Part shown: positions 8,467-18,194 of the stretch, piece by piece
How positions within the stretch are numbered: position 1 is the stretch's first letter
Layout of the letters: every line of letters begins with the position of its first letter
DNA from: Treponema sp. UBA4307
GTDB taxonomy: Bacteria; Spirochaetota; Spirochaetia; Treponematales; Treponemataceae
Assembly: GCA_002394685.1 (NCBI GenBank)
Contig: DGUP01000053.1
Location: 14,767-78,766, forward strand
DNA: 64,000 nt
Direction: 5' to 3'
The notes under the pieces: generated by a model
The model's database searches: none
What the model saw: only the letters and a program-made list of their open reading frames with translations
Told to the model about the DNA's origin: nothing
Made by a program: the position numbers and the translations under genes

Positions 8467-8826
8467 CGCACATTAAAAAAAGTAAACCTGAACAATCAGG
8501 AACAATGTTCATAAGAGGCTCACTTTTTTAAATCAATATTATTACTAAACACAATACTATCACCGTGAGAGTCATTTGTAAAGAATAACATTTTGTTTAA
8601 AATTAGGATTTTTTTGTTGTAATAACTAATTTATTGTTATTTAACTATACAAGTGTACTGTAAAAGAGAAATTTCAGTCCTTTAATTGATGCATTTTTTT
8701 ATAACAGCTATTTTTTTTGATAATTCAATAAATATGAAATATAATTTAATATCATTACAGTAATATTGTAAAATGTCCGATAAATATTAATAATATAGAA
8801 AACTTTTTTTTCTGAGGATTGGAGAG

Positions 8827-11031
8827 ATGAAGAAAACAACCTTTTATGATAAGACTCTTACACGAGAGTTGTCTTTTAGTATTGGTGCAGTACTTATTGT
8901 ACTTCTGGTGGCTCTTGGCTTATTTCTTGCATTAAGAGTTAACAAAGGTTTCAGAAGTATATCTGATGATTATCTTAATCAGGTCAGTGAATATTATTCT
9001 TCTTCTACAGAAAAGATTCTTGAAGGCGAATTCAAAATAGGAACCACATTAAAGGCTGCCATGGAATGTTTTGAAGAAATCGAGCCTGAAAATCGACGTG
9101 ACTATTTAAATAATTTTTTAAGACAGACCCTTGAAGAAAATCCTAATCTTGTAGATACCTGGTGTGTCTGGGAGCCGAATGCACTGGATGGAATGGATGC
9201 CAGATATGCAACTCATGACGGACAAACTGCTCCTGATACAGATCAGTCAGGACGCTTTATTCCATACTGGACACAGGTGGGTTCAACAATTGACTGTACT
9301 GCACTTACTGAATATGAAGAGGGCAGCTGGTACGTTGATCCATTTAATAATGATAAAGGTATTCTCATAGACCCTAACCTTTATGAAGTTGGTGGAAAAA
9401 TGATGTGGGTTTGCGGTGCAGCTTTTCCAATCAAAGATAAGAATGGAAAGTCTATCGGTGTAGTTGGACTTGATATGTCTCTGGACACTTTGACTAACAT
9501 GCTGAGATCTGCTGAACTTTATAAGAGTGGATATCTTTCCTTGATTTCAAATACAGGTCTTACTGCTGTTGATAAGGATATAAATCTGGAAGGTCAGACT
9601 TACACTTATTATGATGACAAAACATACGGTGACTTCTTTAAGAAAGCCCGGTCTTCCCTTCAGTCTCAGACTTTCTCCACAGCAGACGGATATATTCATA
9701 TTGTAAATCCAATTCAGGTTGCCGGAGCAGATGAAATCTGGTACTTGGGAGCAAATGTTCCTTCTTCAGAAGTAAATCGTCCTATAAAGGATATTGTAAC
9801 AATCGTAATCATAGGATTTGTAATTACAACAGTCGTTCTTTATGTACTTACATTCCTCTTTGTTTCAATCATGTCTTCTTCCCTTAAACGGGGAGTTGCC
9901 GCACTTAAAAATATTGCTCAGGGTGATGGAGACCTTACAGTTCGTGTTGAAGCAAAAAAGGACAACGAACTTGGCCAGATGTACACTTACTTCAACGAAA
10001 CAATGGAAAAGCTTCAGAATTCAATTGGAAAGGTAAAAACTGAATCTGAGTCTATGGAACAGACTGGTATTATGCTTACTGAAAATATGAATACTACTGC
10101 GGCTGCTGCAAATCAGGTAACTGCAAATATTGAAAGCGTTAATCAGGAAGTAAAGAAACAGGCTGGCAATGTAAAGAGTGCAAACGATTCAGTTGAAGAA
10201 ATCAATGAACAGGTTAAGAAACTCGTTGGCAGCATAGAATCTCAAAGTTCCAGCGTAGTTGAATCTTCTTCTGCAATTGAACAGATGGTTGCAAATATTC
10301 GTTCTGTAACCAACATTCTTAAGGCTAACAGTGAAACTATTGAAAGCCTTGAAAAATCTTCTGAAGCTGGTAGAGAAAATATCGCTTCAAGTGTTGATGC
10401 TACAGAAAAAATTCGTGAGCAGTCAAAAACACTGCTGGAAGCTTCAAGCGTTATTCAGAATATTGCCGAACAAACAAACCTGCTGGCTATGAATGCAGCA
10501 ATTGAAGCGGCACATGCGGGGGAGGCTGGAAAGGGCTTCTCTGTTGTTGCAGATGAAATTCGTAAACTTGCAGAAGATTCAAATACTCAGGGTAAGAAAA
10601 TTACAGAAAATCTTAATGAAGTACTTTCAAGTATTGAAGATGTTACAAATTCTACAATGCAGATGCAGACTCAGTTCGGCGAAATTTATGAGCTGACACA
10701 AAAAGTTTCTCAGCAGGAACTTACGATTATGCATGCAATGCAAGAACAGTCAGAAGGTGGTGGACAGGTACTTCAGGCAATGAAGGAAATTAATGACATT
10801 ACAATGAATGTTAGAAATGGCAGTGAAGCAATGCAGGCCGCTACAGATAATGTTAATAAGGAAATGGATGTACTCACCCGTATTACTGATGAAATTACTT
10901 CAAGTATGGAAGAGATGGCTTTTGGTCTTGCTGATATTAACAACAGCATCAATCATGTTAATGATGAGACCCACAACCTTAAAGACAGTATCCAGAGTCT
11001 GACTGCAGTTGTTAATACATTCAAGGTATAA
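8827..11031 (+). CDS. Methyl-accepting chemotaxis protein (Cache-type sensor, HAMP, MA domain)
   Basis: Two TM segments, periplasmic sensor, [34 protein letters not shown]. Confidence 0.93.
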
Positions 11032-11099
11032 AAACAGTAAGCTGATTAACAGACACTTTGCATAAGTTCACATGCAGTATAGATGAGGGAGTAAATTGA

Positions 11100-11450
11100 A
11101 TGAAGAGCGAACAAGAAATTTTTGTTGAAAATATGAAATATTACCGCAATCTAAATGATATGTCTCAGCAAGAATTGGCAAAACTCTGCAATGTGTCTGT
11201 TGGAACTATAGGAAATATTGAAAGTTACATTTCAAAACCGTCGTTTGATATGATTATCAATATTTCAAGACAGTTAAACATCTCTCCGGACTACCTTTTT
11301 AGAGATAGAAGTAAAAAAGATGAAATGCCACTCTTAGATGTTCAAAAGAAAAAAATATTAAATATTCTGGAAGATAAATTACGTACCCGCATAAATGAAT
11401 CATTAGCAGACAGTTGCCATCAGATAAAGATTCTTTTAGATGGTGAATAA
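11100..11450 (+). CDS. XRE-family helix-turn-helix regulator
   Basis: MSQQELAKLCNVSVGTIGNIE...PSFDMIINISRQL (HTH_3 pattern). Confidence 0.85.
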   Translation: MKSEQEIFVENMKYYRNLNDMSQQELAKLCNVSVGTIGNIESYISKPSFDMIINISRQLNISPDYLFRDRSKKDEMPLLDVQKKKILNILEDKLRTRINESLADSCHQIKILLDGE

Positions 11451-11465
11451 TTCCTTTAGATAAAA

Positions 11466-11558
11466 CTAATATATTTGTAAAGTCCACAAAAATTGACTGA
11501 CTTGTTTTCCATCGTCAGTAATTTCGATGAAATCAGAATTTTCTAATAATGTCTTCAT
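11466..11558 (-). CDS. 30-aa small peptide MKTLLENSDFIEITDDGKQVSQFLWTLQIY (not in ORF track)
   Basis: GGAGG 5 nt before ATG 11558; promoter TTGAAA(11647-11642)-N17-TATACT(11624-11619); stop TAG at 11468-11466. Confidence 0.55.
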   Translation of the reverse strand: MKTLLENSDFIEITDDGKQVSQFLWTLQIY

Positions 11559-11719
11559 TTTTACCTCCGTACATTATTTTTAACTGTGTAAACATATTGA
11601 TATTTCTCACCTATATTGAGTATACTATACCTACAAGATTTTTTCAATTCTTATCTGTTAAAATTGCTTTTATAGATTTAACATAATAAAAGGATATATA
11701 AAAATAGGAAGGTAAAAAA

Positions 11720-13324
11720 ATGATTAAAAAACTTAAACTCGTATTCCTCATAATGTTTTCTAGTTCACTGCTTTTTCTCAGCTGTAAAAATAAAGTTCCT
11801 GCTGCCTCACAGCAAATGGTACTGCCTGTTGAAGTGACTTCATCCATGAATGGTTCTTATGTAATGTTAAATATCAACGGCTACATGTATGCCTTTCTTT
11901 TAGATTTAGGGCTTGAAAAGAATTATATCGATGAACATACAGCTTACGTCATTAACAATTATAAAAAACAGAAAGACAAAACTTTCCGCATAAACTCCTT
12001 AAACTGGGGTGCATATACTTTTAATAACATTGACTTCGTTATTAATAACACATTATCTTTAGACAGTTTTTATGCCGGAATATTAGGACAGGATTTTTTC
12101 AAATCATTTGACTTTCTGACACTGGACCTGTCTACAAATCGGCTTATCCTTAATGAAAGTATTTCAAGTAAAAATTTTATAAAATATAGACTTAATAATT
12201 ATACCGTCTCTTTCAAGCAAAAGAATATCAATATGGGGTTAGCAACTCTTACATTACCTAACATGTATTCAGACTCCCTTCAAAGTTTTCCAGAAACAGA
12301 TCTGGATGTGAACATAAGTAATCCAATTCCATATTCCCAGTCAGAGCTTTACACTTTATTTCCTGTTTATTTTAAGGGTAAGGATGCTCTGCTTGGCTTT
12401 GATGCACTGATGGAAAATACAGTGTCGTTCGACTTGAAAAACAAAAAGTTTGCTTTTAACAAATCAAATAATACTGAACCTTTACCATTTCGAAATCCCG
12501 GCGAAAAAATGTCTGTTTCTGAAAAAATAATAAAATCAGACATTAACTTGCCTGAAACAATAGAGATACCTTTACAAATCAAAAATAACGGAATGTATAT
12601 TAATATTCCCTTTGATGACAAAGAACTCTCCTTTATGCTTGATACTGGAGCCCCACAAAATTTGATTTTTAAGGAAGGATTATATAAAACTCACATCAAA
12701 ACAAATGATAATGAACATTCGTTTAAGGTATGTACACCGTCTTACATAATTAATGATACAAAAATGGATGAAATAGAACTAATACTCTATGACGCTAAAC
12801 AGGGGCTTAAAAACGATGGTTTACTTGGAATGGTTTTTCTTACTTCTTACCCCGAATATGCCTACGTACAGATTAATTATCCAGAAAAGGTTCTCAGATT
12901 TACAAATAAAAAACCATCCGGACAGGAAGTTCCTATTGAATCAAAAAATCATATTTATTGTAATGTAGAAGTAAATGGTAAAATATACAAAGCACTAATA
13001 GACTCCGGTTTTATCGGAGCCTCCTATATTGTTGATTGTTCAGATAAGGAACTTTTTTCTGAACAACAAAGTCAATCAGCATATAGCTTATATAATCGTA
13101 TCACCGAATCTTTTCCTTACACAAATAATCTTCCAGTAACAATTGGAAATAAAAAAATTCAAATCCCATGTTATAACTCTTCTAAAGAACACATAAACAG
13201 TTTAATTCCAAATTTCTTAACAGTTGACAATATAGGAAATGTTAGCATGGTTTTGTGCATAGACCTTTTTACTAAAAATATAGTTACCTTCGATTTTAAG
13301 AACTCACTTATGTGGATTGAATAA
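11720..13324 (+). CDS. Lipoprotein with four tandem retropepsin-like (aspartyl protease) lobes
   Basis: Lipobox FLSC; LLDLG, FMLDTGA and ALIDSG motifs, with downstream ILG/LLG motifs; visibly AT-rich. Confidence 0.75.
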   Translation: MIKKLKLVFLIMFSSSLLFLSCKNKVPAASQQMVLPVEVTSSMNGSYVMLNINGYMYAFLLDLGLEKNYIDEHTAYVINNYKKQKDKTFRINSLNWGAYTFNNIDFVINNTLSLDSFYAGILGQDFFKSFDFLTLDLSTNRLILNESISSKNFIKYRLNNYTVSFKQKNINMGLATLTLPNMYSDSLQSFPETDLDVNISNPIPYSQSELYTLFPVYFKGKDALLGFDALMENTVSFDLKNKKFAFNKSNNTEPLPFRNPGEKMSVSEKIIKSDINLPETIEIPLQIKNNGMYINIPFDDKELSFMLDTGAPQNLIFKEGLYKTHIKTNDNEHSFKVCTPSYIINDTKMDEIELILYDAKQGLKNDGLLGMVFLTSYPEYAYVQINYPEKVLRFTNKKPSGQEVPIESKNHIYCNVEVNGKIYKALIDSGFIGASYIVDCSDKELFSEQQSQSAYSLYNRITESFPYTNNLPVTIGNKKIQIPCYNSSKEHINSLIPNFLTVDNIGNVSMVLCIDLFTKNIVTFDFKNSLMWIE

Positions 13325-13439
13325 AACGAAGACTTGATAATCAAGTTTGTCTGGATTTTGAAACAATTCTACTTAAGAATGGTATTAAACCAAAATCATT
13401 TGAGTCTGTTAAAATATACGGTTAACTTTTCCAATCTTC

Positions 13440-13958
13440 TCACCTGACCCACTGATAAGCCATGCGCTTCCATAGTTCAGGGGGAAGATCAGTGTGGGCT
13501 TCGGTGTTGATGATTCCGCAGTATTTAAAGCCGTTCTTTTCAATCAGGTGCTGCATGATTTTGTTGTCTTTGAAGGTATCTATTCTGATATTTGTATACT
13601 GCTCTTTTACAAAATCTATGGCGGCGTTAAAAATGCCTTTTATCTGTCCATCACTTGCAAGCCTGTGGATGGTAACGTAGGGATCATCATTAATCCAGAC
13701 GCCATCAATTTCCTCATAAGTTGATTCAATCCCAAAAATCATTGTGAAAACTCCGTGGACTTTTCCCTGGCTCTCTAACACATAAAGATTATTGTTTCTT
13801 AAATCTCTTTCAATGTAATCAAGTGAAGGATAGCCTTCTTCCCACTGTTTAGGATTGCCTGTTTTTTTCATAAATTCTTTGGCAACTACATAGATTGAAG
13901 CGATTGTTTCTGTGTCGGATTCTACTGCCGGACGAATAAGAATTTTTTTTGTGTACAT
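13440..13958 (-). CDS. GNAT N-acetyltransferase
   Basis: IHRLAS, NIRIDT, NKIMQHLIEKNGFKYCG. Confidence 0.85.
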   Translation of the reverse strand: MYTKKILIRPAVESDTETIASIYVVAKEFMKKTGNPKQWEEGYPSLDYIERDLRNNNLYVLESQGKVHGVFTMIFGIESTYEEIDGVWINDDPYVTIHRLASDGQIKGIFNAAIDFVKEQYTNIRIDTFKDNKIMQHLIEKNGFKYCGIINTEAHTDLPPELWKRMAYQWVR

Positions 13959-16307: not shown

Positions 16308-18194
16308 TTAAAGAGTAAACTTCTTCATTTCAGAATCAATTCCTGCAATAGCAAAGCGGTTTTTCTCTGAAGACATATTTACCTGTTTTACAACTGTGAC
16401 GATTTTTTCAGAGGCATTTTCCATTTCGCTTATTGCTGAATTAATTTCCTGATTTGCCTGATCCAGGGCCTGCATCTGGTTAACAACCATTTGTCCTCCG
16501 TCCCGCATTTCCTGGGCATCATTTTTAACGTCGATTGTTGTAGAATCAATATGGCGCATTGCTTCCAGAATCTGGGTGCTTCCCGCACTCTGCTGCAGCA
16601 TTGCATTGCGGACAGTTTCTTCCTGATCATTTACAACTTTTGACAGGTTAGCCATAATTTCAAACTGCCCCTGAACCAGGCGGGTACTTTCACTTACGCT
16701 GTTAATGACATCCTGAATTTTCTGAAGACTGTCTGAAATATGTTTTCCCTGTTCGTCACTCTGGATTGCAAGCTTACGAATTTCATCTGCAACAACAGAA
16801 AATCCTCTTCCTGCTTCTCCTGCATGAGCTGCTTCAATGGCGGCATTCATAGCCAGCAGGTTAGTCTGACTTGCAATGTCCTGAATTACAGTTGAAGCCT
16901 CAATCAAGCCCTGGCTTTCATCAAGAATTTTACTTGCGTAATTAACGGCCTGCTCAACTCTTTCGTAGCCCAGGTCGTATGCTTTTGAAAGCTGTTCAGA
17001 AGTTACGCTGTTCTTTTCCAGAATATCTGTAACGTCTTTAATATTTGTAACCATCTGCCTTACAGCAGCCGCACTTTCTTCTACGCTGGAACTTTGAGCC
17101 TGAATGCTGCAGTTAAGCTTTTCAATATTCTGCATGATATTGTTTGTAGCGTTTCTTGCAGTTTCTACATTTCCGGACTGATTTTTAATCTTTATATTTA
17201 CTGAAGAAATGTTTTCAAGAATTTCCCTGATTTCCTGGTCAGTTTTCTGCATATTATCTTCCAGTTCATTACTTACCTGAACTGTTGAACTGATATTTTG
17301 ATTTACTCCTGAAAGCAGTTTTTTGTTATTATCAAAGAAATCATTGAGATTATTGATGACCATACCAAACTGATCACGGTTTTCTACAGGAAGTTTTTCT
17401 CCGGTGTAGTCCCCCTTTGCCAGAAGACGACTCATATCACCAATTTTCTTAATGCTTTTAAGAAGTGATTTCATCTGAACTGCAACAGCAAATCCTGCAC
17501 AGAAAAGACCTGAGAGCATATGAGGAATCCAGGTAATGACAAATTTGATTGCAAAAGCATCTTTGTTGTCAAAAAATTTATCCCCGTAAGCTCCGTAAGT
17601 TGTAACGATTGAAAGCATTACTCCGGCAAAAATACCCCAGATAAGTACAATCATTGTTACAGTCAGGCGGGCAGTAATTCCCATTGATATATCACCATCC
17701 TTAAGTGGCAGAAATGAAAGCCATTTAGAATAGCGGTCAATCCACAAGGAATAAAAGAAAATGCTCACAAGACATGTAGCACTTACACTGGTATAAATGA
17801 CTCTCCATATTGACCCCTGTGCACCTGTAAGAGCAAAGGTCAGGTTAATTACACCTGGATAAATGAATCCTACCAGAATTGGTGTAATCATATTAAAGAA
17901 CATCTGGCTTTTGTATGCGCGGGTACATTCTTTCTGAGAAAGTTCGCTGCCGTCATAGTTTCGGATTTTTTTTTCCAGAGAGTGATTAACAAAAAAAATT
18001 CCCAGAATATAAATCAATATAAAAGTAAGTACCGGGATGGAAAAATAGACTTTGATTCTATCTTGTGTGGAATTATAAATGCTTGAATTGATAATTGAAA
18101 AACTCAGTCCGTAAATAAATGGAGCAACGTAAATCATCCAGCATAAAATACTTGTAAGCACTGGAGGACGGTTGCGTAAAGAATCCTGTCCCAT
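16308..18194 (-). CDS. Methyl-accepting chemotaxis protein with multi-TM N-terminus
   Basis: Several TM helices, HAMP-like region, [34 protein letters not shown]. Confidence 0.92.

Follow-up and report, generated by a model that had tools for sequence, protein, structure and literature searches.

The window, a 64-kb stretch of DNA from Treponema sp. UBA4307, contains a 30-residue open reading frame (ORF; 11558–11466, reverse strand) situated between a gene for an XRE-family regulator and a gene for a 534-residue lipoprotein with retropepsin-like aspartic protease lobes. This ORF is very probably a pseudogene stub which, together with further deletion scars, marks a decayed island for a peptide made on the ribosome and modified after translation (RiPP), beside a lipoprotein gene that has stayed intact. 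More tentatively, we infer that the lipoprotein was the cognate partner of the mature peptide and may have been retained as an orphan immunity or resistance factor. An earlier note on the same DNA had described the ORF, its GGAGG motif, a promoter-like site, the XRE gene, and the lipoprotein gene, and all of these statements held on recheck.

Origin of the 30-Residue ORF

The ORF reads MKTLLENSDFIEITDDGKQVSQFLWTLQIY, has a GGAGG ribosome-binding site (RBS) 5 nt 5′ of its ATG (acGGAGGtaaaaATG), converges on the XRE gene across a gap of 15 bp, and is transcribed divergently from the lipoprotein gene. Relatives of the locus were found on contigs designated by L-numbers (L004, L005, L006, L010, and others), where ORFs of 53, 56, and 58 residues adjoin the lipoprotein relatives of 78 and 84% identity and start with the same residues as the window ORF. 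These intact precursors consist of a leader, MKTLLENADFIEITDDEKEKVVGG, and a Gly/Ser-rich core of 29–34 residues with a C-terminal Cys. Double-glycine leaders have a consensus of hydrophobic residues at positions −4, −7, −12, and −15 and Glu at −8; the intact leader, which ends in EKEKVVGG followed by D, fits this pattern with V(−4), E(−8), I(−12), and F(−15) but not with K(−7). Only positions −15 to −9 of the pattern are retained in the window, and the F-I-E-I-T motif pointed out in the earlier note proved to be leader positions −15 to −11.

The two parts of the stub have different sources. Codons 1–16 (11511–11558, reverse strand) are the true 5′ part of the double-glycine leader (MKTLLENSDFIEITDD), and the front of the stub shares 84–89% amino acid identity with the intact precursors (L005, L006, and L010) over their first 19 residues. 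Codons 19–30 and the stop codon (11466–11504, reverse strand) are former 3′ non-coding DNA, now read as QVSQFLWTLQIY before the stop; the last 14 residues of the stub, GKQVSQFLWTLQIY, are 100% identical to the translation of L006 7011–7052 (tblastn), which is non-coding and lies ∼80 bp 3′ of the intact 56-residue gene. The junction between the parts (11505–11511, reverse strand) is a microhomology, tG(G/A)AAAA, common to the leader and the former 3′ flank. It is visible as an overlap of blastn matches (window 8694–11511 with L006 9825–7010, and window 11505–13326 with L006 4785–6607), and a multiple DNA alignment places it at the same 11505–11511. Moreover, a goat-gut contig, from a separate run aligned to the window that serves as an independent check, departs from the window exactly at 11505 and continues into EKVVGGDSVD, as in an intact precursor.

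The deletion comprises ∼200 bp (L006 6811–7010) and took with it the remainder of the leader with its GG site, all of the core, the stop codon, and the hairpin that the intact gene has at its 3′ end (about −30 kcal/mol), such that no GG (or GA/GS) cleavage site remains in the window ORF and no terminator-like site was found 3′ of the stub. Since the stub has neither a GG site nor a core, no GG-processed peptide can be made from it. L010 represents an intermediate, with the stub, an intact 58-residue precursor, and a maturase on the same contig. Taken together, the alignments indicate that the ORF is a pseudogene stub in which leader codons 1–16 (or 18) are fused to former 3′ non-coding DNA. 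The suggestion that it might be a frameshifted remnant of a longer precursor was thus right as to the remnant and wrong as to the lesion: the alignment shows a clean deletion and a frameshift is ruled out. A toxin-antitoxin pair of the XRE gene and a small toxin was also considered and rejected, as the ORF is homologous to a leader peptide and not to a toxin.

The precursor family is tiny, with four clusters at 90% identity among 5.8 billion proteins, all of them intact forms. The precursors matched no Pfam or NCBIfam family, showing only sub-threshold resemblance to GG-leader peptides (CTB bacteriocin, VP1, and ComC). A search of genome contigs with the leader DNA pattern returned chance matches only (Chryseolinea and Providencia), and three of the six matches in metagenomes were also due to chance.

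Sibling Islands and Two Further Scars

At this site a variable island is bounded by conserved flanks, MCP-XRE on one side and GNAT on the other; the flanks of the window are 97–98% identical to those of L006 and L010, but the segment between them differs (blastn). The gene order in L010 and L006 is MCP, XRE, stub or 56-residue precursor, lipoprotein, 58-residue precursor, 804-residue radical SAM enzyme, and GNAT, with the lipoprotein gene inverted relative to the window. Two further contigs, L014 and L015, are 100% identical to window 12653–13327 and then enter different DNA that encodes a 439-residue secreted protein, an HlyD adaptor, a C39-ABC exporter, GT4, DUF6625, and another lipoprotein paralog, to which L005 adds a 53-residue precursor and a third lipoprotein paralog. 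Sibling islands have from one to three precursor genes, each of which adjoins a lipoprotein gene. The order proposed for the full island is stub or precursor, protease, 439-residue gene, HlyD, ABC exporter, GT4, DUF6625, protease, precursor, protease, and, after a gap, precursor and maturase.

The C39-ABC exporter of L005, L014, and L015 scores 564 bits against TIGR01193, above the cut-off of 523.85. The radical SAM enzyme, the putative maturase, exceeds the cut-offs of Radical_SAM (51 bits) and the SPASM model TIGR04085 (50.7 bits). It falls outside every named equivalog, its best being PapB (NF047865, 146.4 bits against a cut-off of 340), with the Nif11-peptide and SCIFF maturase models lower still relative to their cut-offs. 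About 380 C-terminal residues of this enzyme (L006 2100–4514 and L010 10324–12738) have no match in Pfam or NCBIfam and close with a Cys-rich end, CEGINEKCRKCEISSFCTQENNRC; in L011 and L013 the same gene is called at 792 residues. The 439-residue protein (L014 5873–7192), whose gene follows that of HlyD, matched nothing in Pfam, NCBIfam, or the PDB by sequence; it has a signal peptide and long helical segments rich in Asn, Glu, and Lys. From its position and signal peptide it may be a TolC-like outer-membrane channel for the exporter.

Two further scars lie immediately beyond the lipoprotein gene of the window. The first (13327–13359, forward strand) is the 3′ end of the DUF6625 gene, with 31 of 34 nt identical to L005 4891–4924 and L014 499–532; this scar amounts to 19–34 bp, the last 14 bp of which overlap the second. 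The second (13346–13425, forward strand) comprises the last 25 codons and stop codon of the maturase gene, reading CLDFETILLKNGIKPKSFESVKIYG before the stop, as seen in both translation and DNA alignment to L006 and L010; by tblastn, maturase residues 774–804 are found at window 13330–13422 with 81% identity. The goat-gut contigs have loose ends exactly at 13326 (into DUF6625), 13327 (into the exporter block), and 13346 (into the maturase). Beyond these remnants, searches of the 64-kb window found no second leader and no gene for an exporter, an adaptor, a glycosyltransferase, a complete DUF6625 protein or maturase, or a lipoprotein paralog.

The three scars can be explained by two or three deletions together with an inversion across the inverted leader repeats on either side of the lipoprotein gene; in the reconstruction that we adopt, at least three deletions and the inversion stripped the island of the window strain down to one lipoprotein gene. 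Producers and non-producers appear as a polymorphism at one chromosomal site, in gut samples from human, pig, goat, sheep, and cattle. These gut-metagenome sources and a Borrelia_P13 neighbor agree with the attribution of the window to a gut Treponema.

The Four-lobed Aspartic Protease Lipoprotein

The lipoprotein gene (11720–13324, forward strand) is intact and encodes 534 residues, starting with MIKKLKLVFLIMFSSSLLFLSC, in which a signal peptide and the lipobox LFLSC with Cys22 can be read, followed by four retropepsin-like lobes. The protein exceeds the Pfam cut-offs of both gag-asp_proteas (PF13975, 42.4 bits against 28.2) and Asp_protease_2 (PF13650, 39.8 bits against 24.3). The earlier description of an AT-rich retropepsin lipoprotein gene was borne out in both respects, the GC content being 0.29–0.33 compared with 0.36–0.42 in the flanks. 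In an alignment of 12 family members (A1), Cys22 is the sole invariant column, and D308-T-G and D428-x-G are nearly invariant. Lobes 1 and 2 are degenerate, with a DLG motif that is not conserved, and lobes 3 and 4 carry the dyad D308-T-G and D428-S-G, which identifies them as the probable catalytic pair.

An AlphaFold (AF2) model has a mean pLDDT of 80.5 and consists of two bilobed modules joined by a disordered linker (approximately residues 250–271). The top structural hit in Foldseek was a putative endopeptidase of B. fragilis (PDB code 9iy9, 4.8e-14), followed by plasmepsins, renins, and chymosins of the pepsin family (∼1e-9). The two-lobe D-T/S-G motif, the family model over its cut-off, and the fold place the protein among the clan AA aspartic proteases.

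Only 13 representatives of this rare family reached E < 1e-3 in a set of 1.8 billion proteins, and relatives are graded at 90, 84, 78, 46, and 45% identity. A scan of genome contigs with the protease found no relative. Six alleles of the window gene all encode 534 residues and have neither stops nor indels. Whole-gene dN/dS is 0.41–0.50, with dS of 0.11–0.45, far above that of the flanks. The relatives at the 45% level occur as two genes in tandem, whose products are 38 and 45% identical to the window protein, at L007 3111–6596, directly 3′ of an ABC sugar-type transporter operon and with no precursor-like ORFs nearby, and a relative of 31% identity is located among cell-wall genes.

Pairing of Lipoprotein and Precursor

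In the close relatives every precursor gene adjoins one lipoprotein gene (L005, L006, L010–L013, and the X8 contigs), such that the link between peptide and protease genes supposed in the earlier note is real. Within the group of 73–100% identity, a precursor gene or stub is found beside the lipoprotein gene at every locus with readable flanks. In most cassettes the two are joined by the same divergent intergenic region of 160 bp (region C; 11559–11719 in the window), which contains the stub's RBS and a pair of opposed promoter-like sites, is conserved, and aligns closely in L004, L005, and L006 (on the side of the 58-residue gene). The exception is the P1 lipoprotein gene of L005, which follows DUF6625 and converges on the 53-residue gene.

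Comparison with L006 and L010 revealed that the lipoprotein is not uniformly conserved. Lobes 1 and 2 are 94–97% identical, with dS of only 0.01–0.06, lobe 3 is 73–74% identical, and lobe 4 is 48% identical, with a dS of 1.44 and an omega of 0.32. On these values the lipoprotein gene is a mosaic, the front half recently homogenized and the catalytic lobes ancient, alternative, and individually constrained. In the few loci available, the type of lobe 4 corresponds to the type of the neighboring peptide: type A (window, L004, L020, L005 P1, and the goat cassette) adjoins the 53-residue type, and type B adjoins the 58- and 56-residue peptides. In the proposed immunity mechanism, the lipoprotein would bind or cleave peptide that arrives at the membrane surface, which type of peptide is recognized would depend on the variable lobes 3 and 4, and the conserved lobes 1 and 2, together with the promoter region, would act as recombination handles.

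Retention of the gene is in keeping with a role as an immunity or resistance factor, as its homolog adjoins a precursor in the relatives and it is kept intact at this locus without the biosynthesis genes, being of full length (534 residues) beside the stub in the window, L004, and L020. This is the reading that we favor, tentatively. Several observations weigh against it. The match of lobe 4 and peptide type was seen in two lineages and at a small number of loci, and a whole-gene dN/dS of 0.4–0.5 would also be compatible with a surface antigen under host pressure. The distant members of the family sit outside any RiPP context. The absence of the island genes applies to the 64-kb window, and an intact copy may exist elsewhere in the genome; furthermore, the full order of the large island was assembled from short contigs, which end where the protease genes are repeated. 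Finally, no aspartic protease immunity lipoprotein, either described in the literature or as a solved precedent, was found.

The main rival, which we consider unlikely, is that the lipoprotein serves as a protease of general function at the surface or in the periplasm, or as a variable surface antigen, and is functionally unconnected with the peptides, the island being simply a recombination hot spot in which both kinds of gene collect. The distant relatives in unrelated contexts without precursor genes would be expected of such a protein, and a hypervariable C-terminal half suits antigenic variation in a spirochete lipoprotein. This explanation does not readily account for the presence of a precursor or stub at every readable locus of 73–100% identity, for a divergent promoter region common to both genes everywhere except L005 P1, or for a lobe 4 type that tracks the peptide type.

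The alternative that the lipoprotein is a RiPP maturation protease, for example one that trims the exported peptide, and is a leftover that has not yet decayed, appears improbable. The catalytic dyad is intact, the protein is located outside the cytoplasmic membrane and its gene is tightly linked to precursor genes, and NisP, a membrane-anchored leader peptidase, offers a comparison. However, the C39 domain of the exporter already explains removal of the leader at GG, there are up to three protease paralogs per island as opposed to one maturase and one exporter, and it is the catalytic lobe pair that varies, in contrast to a conserved leader and a conserved first part of the core. In addition, the gene has remained full length in at least three independent alleles that have the stub only, while the stub itself drifts. 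We therefore regard immunity or resistance as more likely than maturation, because the lipoprotein is kept where production is lost, occurs as several paralogs per island, and has catalytic lobes that vary with the core.

Expression Signals and Drift of the Stub

A promoter-like site, TTGAAA-N17-TATACT, lies upstream of the stub (11647–11619, reverse strand) and matches 10 of 12 consensus positions, as does a second site on the forward strand (11597–11626). The two oppose each other within 11597–11647 on one shared palindromic −10 element, AGTATACT, and if both were real, the lipoprotein gene and the precursor gene or stub would be in competition for one stretch of DNA when transcribed. The region as a whole contains 12 promoter-like sites where 14.1 are expected from shuffled sequence, i.e. 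not above chance. Rfam gave nothing real in 10900–13700, the single hit having E = 0.96.

The same junction is found in four alleles (window, L004, L010, and L020), in all of which the stub frame is open. These differ by 1 synonymous and 6 non-synonymous changes over 15.7 and 74.3 sites, respectively, which is the neutral expectation, and the stub thus drifts neutrally. A stub on a sheep-gut contig carries E12G, T14A, S21R, and Y30N as well as a change in the start codon, and some of the stub substitutions fall in the conserved leader motif. The DNA upstream of the stub is entirely different in L010. The exact 30-residue product has been gene-called on several public gut-metagenome contigs with the same neighbors; such calls demonstrate an open frame, an RBS, and the existence of close relatives, not function.

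It is very improbable, in our view, that the stub is kept as a regulatory element, acting through antisense transcription into the XRE gene 15 bp away or through competition with the lipoprotein promoter. The hairpin of the precursor gene has been deleted and nothing like a terminator follows the stub; consequently, a transcript, if the promoter of the stub were active, could run antisense into XRE. The −10 palindrome common to both promoter-like sites also agrees with such a role. Against it, these sites are not above chance and the region upstream of the stub is wholly different in L010. The functional XRE-peptide-protease module put forward in the earlier note, in which the 30-residue ORF is a working signaling or bacteriocin peptide that is controlled by XRE and processed or neutralized by the protease, can be given hardly any credence and is abandoned here: a good RBS, a near-consensus promoter-like site, a frame open in four alleles, and its gene calls speak for a working peptide, whereas it has no GG site and no core, its residues 19–30 are translated non-coding DNA, its substitutions are neutral and some affect the conserved leader motif, the window has no exporter or complete maturase, and the XRE gene, which is on the conserved flank, has no counterpart in what has been sequenced of L005 and L014.

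The XRE Gene and the Conserved Flanks

The XRE-family regulator (11100–11450, forward strand; 116 residues) contains a helix-turn-helix domain (HTH_3, 54.9 bits against a cut-off of 23), and its best NCBIfam model, RstR, scores below the cut-off. The gene begins 69 bp 3′ of the MCP gene and has 98% nucleotide identity in L004, L006, and L010. In comparisons with the window, dN/dS is ∼0.1 for XRE, MCP, and GNAT alike; for XRE this value comes from two such comparisons, and the value of 0.92 between L004 and L006 derives from very few changes. No XRE gene is present in the sequenced parts of the exporter-carrying contigs L005 and L014, and a repeat scan of 11559–11719 found no convincing inverted repeat of the operator type, the −10 palindrome aside. 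From its sequence context, the XRE gene belongs to the conserved flank, with nothing to link it to the peptide module, and the proposal that it controls the module was not upheld.

The right-hand flank carries a GNAT-like acetyltransferase gene (13440–13958, reverse strand), which has 97–98% nucleotide identity to L004, L006, and L010 and a dN/dS of 0.06–0.15. On the left, L004 (1167–1436) and L006 (9826–10093) carry ∼270 bp upstream of the MCP gene that are absent at window 8684–8694 and in L010. This DNA holds an ORF of 38–45 residues (ending in MSTGARKINETGAALSEISQKMQESINMIGGEINQFKI) that resembles a C-terminal fragment of another MCP, so that the locus has a second indel polymorphism in which gene debris is present. 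Secondary blastn hits also showed that two MCP genes of the window, ordinary paralogs, share 135 bp at ∼81% identity in the signaling domain (10438–10572 and 16767–16901).

Implications

Taken by itself, the window element is a case of ordinary gene decay, consisting of a pseudogene stub, two further scars, and a retained gene. The island from which it came is a peptide natural-product locus in gut spirochetes, a group with almost no characterized bacteriocins, and full-text literature searches found no description of this gut-spirochete island. The lipoprotein is a candidate for a new type of peptide-resistance protein. If the immunity reading is true, it would be the first aspartic protease immunity system for a RiPP, and populations would contain producers alongside non-producers that are immune, the window strain being one of the latter. 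If the protease inactivates the peptide, its mosaic of conserved and variable parts would provide a simple model for the exchange of immunity specificities through recombination. The widest form of the proposal, that gut Treponema make undescribed radical-SAM-modified double-glycine peptides with strain-specific immunity through four-lobed protease lipoproteins whose swappable lobes define the peptide destroyed, is possible and, at present, doubtful. For annotation, short ORFs that are led by a Shine-Dalgarno sequence and start with MKTLLEN.DFIEI near these lipoprotein genes need to be checked for GG before a peptide is called.

Comparison with Known Systems

The intact relatives share with double-glycine/C39-ABC systems of the TIGR01193 type a leader that ends in GG, has Glu at −8, and is hydrophobic at −4, −12, and −15, and the sibling island has both a C39-ABC exporter over its cut-off and an HlyD adaptor. 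They differ in having Lys instead of a hydrophobic residue at −7, in the diderm spirochete host, and in the tiny size of the precursor family, and the window differs further in having only the first 16–18 leader codons and no exporter.

With the radical-SAM/SPASM thioether RiPPs (PapB-type ranthipeptides, SCIFF, and sactipeptides), the sibling maturase has in common the radical SAM core and SPASM domain, and its best models are the PapB, Nif11-peptide, and SCIFF maturases; Cys is present in the cores, where the one at the C terminus is conserved. Unlike in those systems, scores against all equivalog models fall well short of the cut-offs (for PapB, 146 against 340), the enzyme has a length of 804 residues, and one core has a single Cys.

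Among proteases, the closest likeness is to single-chain pepsin-like and tandem retropepsin-like enzymes, such as 9iy9 and APRick of Rickettsia, in the profile and fold of lobes 3 and 4 and their DTG/DSG motifs. The window protein differs from these by its extra, degenerate front pair of lobes and its lipobox, and has 14% identity to 9iy9.

In the lantibiotic systems, self-protection by lipoproteins and proteases is represented by the LanI lipoproteins and by the nisin resistance protease NSR. The window protein is unlike either in being a four-lobed retropepsin/pepsin-like aspartic protease, and its protective role is a prediction. The likeness to orphan bacteriocin immunity genes is closer: the lipoprotein gene adjoins the precursor in relatives and is intact where precursor, maturase, and exporter are gone, its product is located outside the cytoplasmic membrane, and the polymorphic part tracks the peptide type, a pattern that is classical for bacteriocin loci. 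The intact island as a whole, judged from its predicted genes, resembles a RiPP cluster of the radical-SAM/SPASM kind in which double-glycine-leader precursors are combined with a C39-ABC/HlyD exporter.

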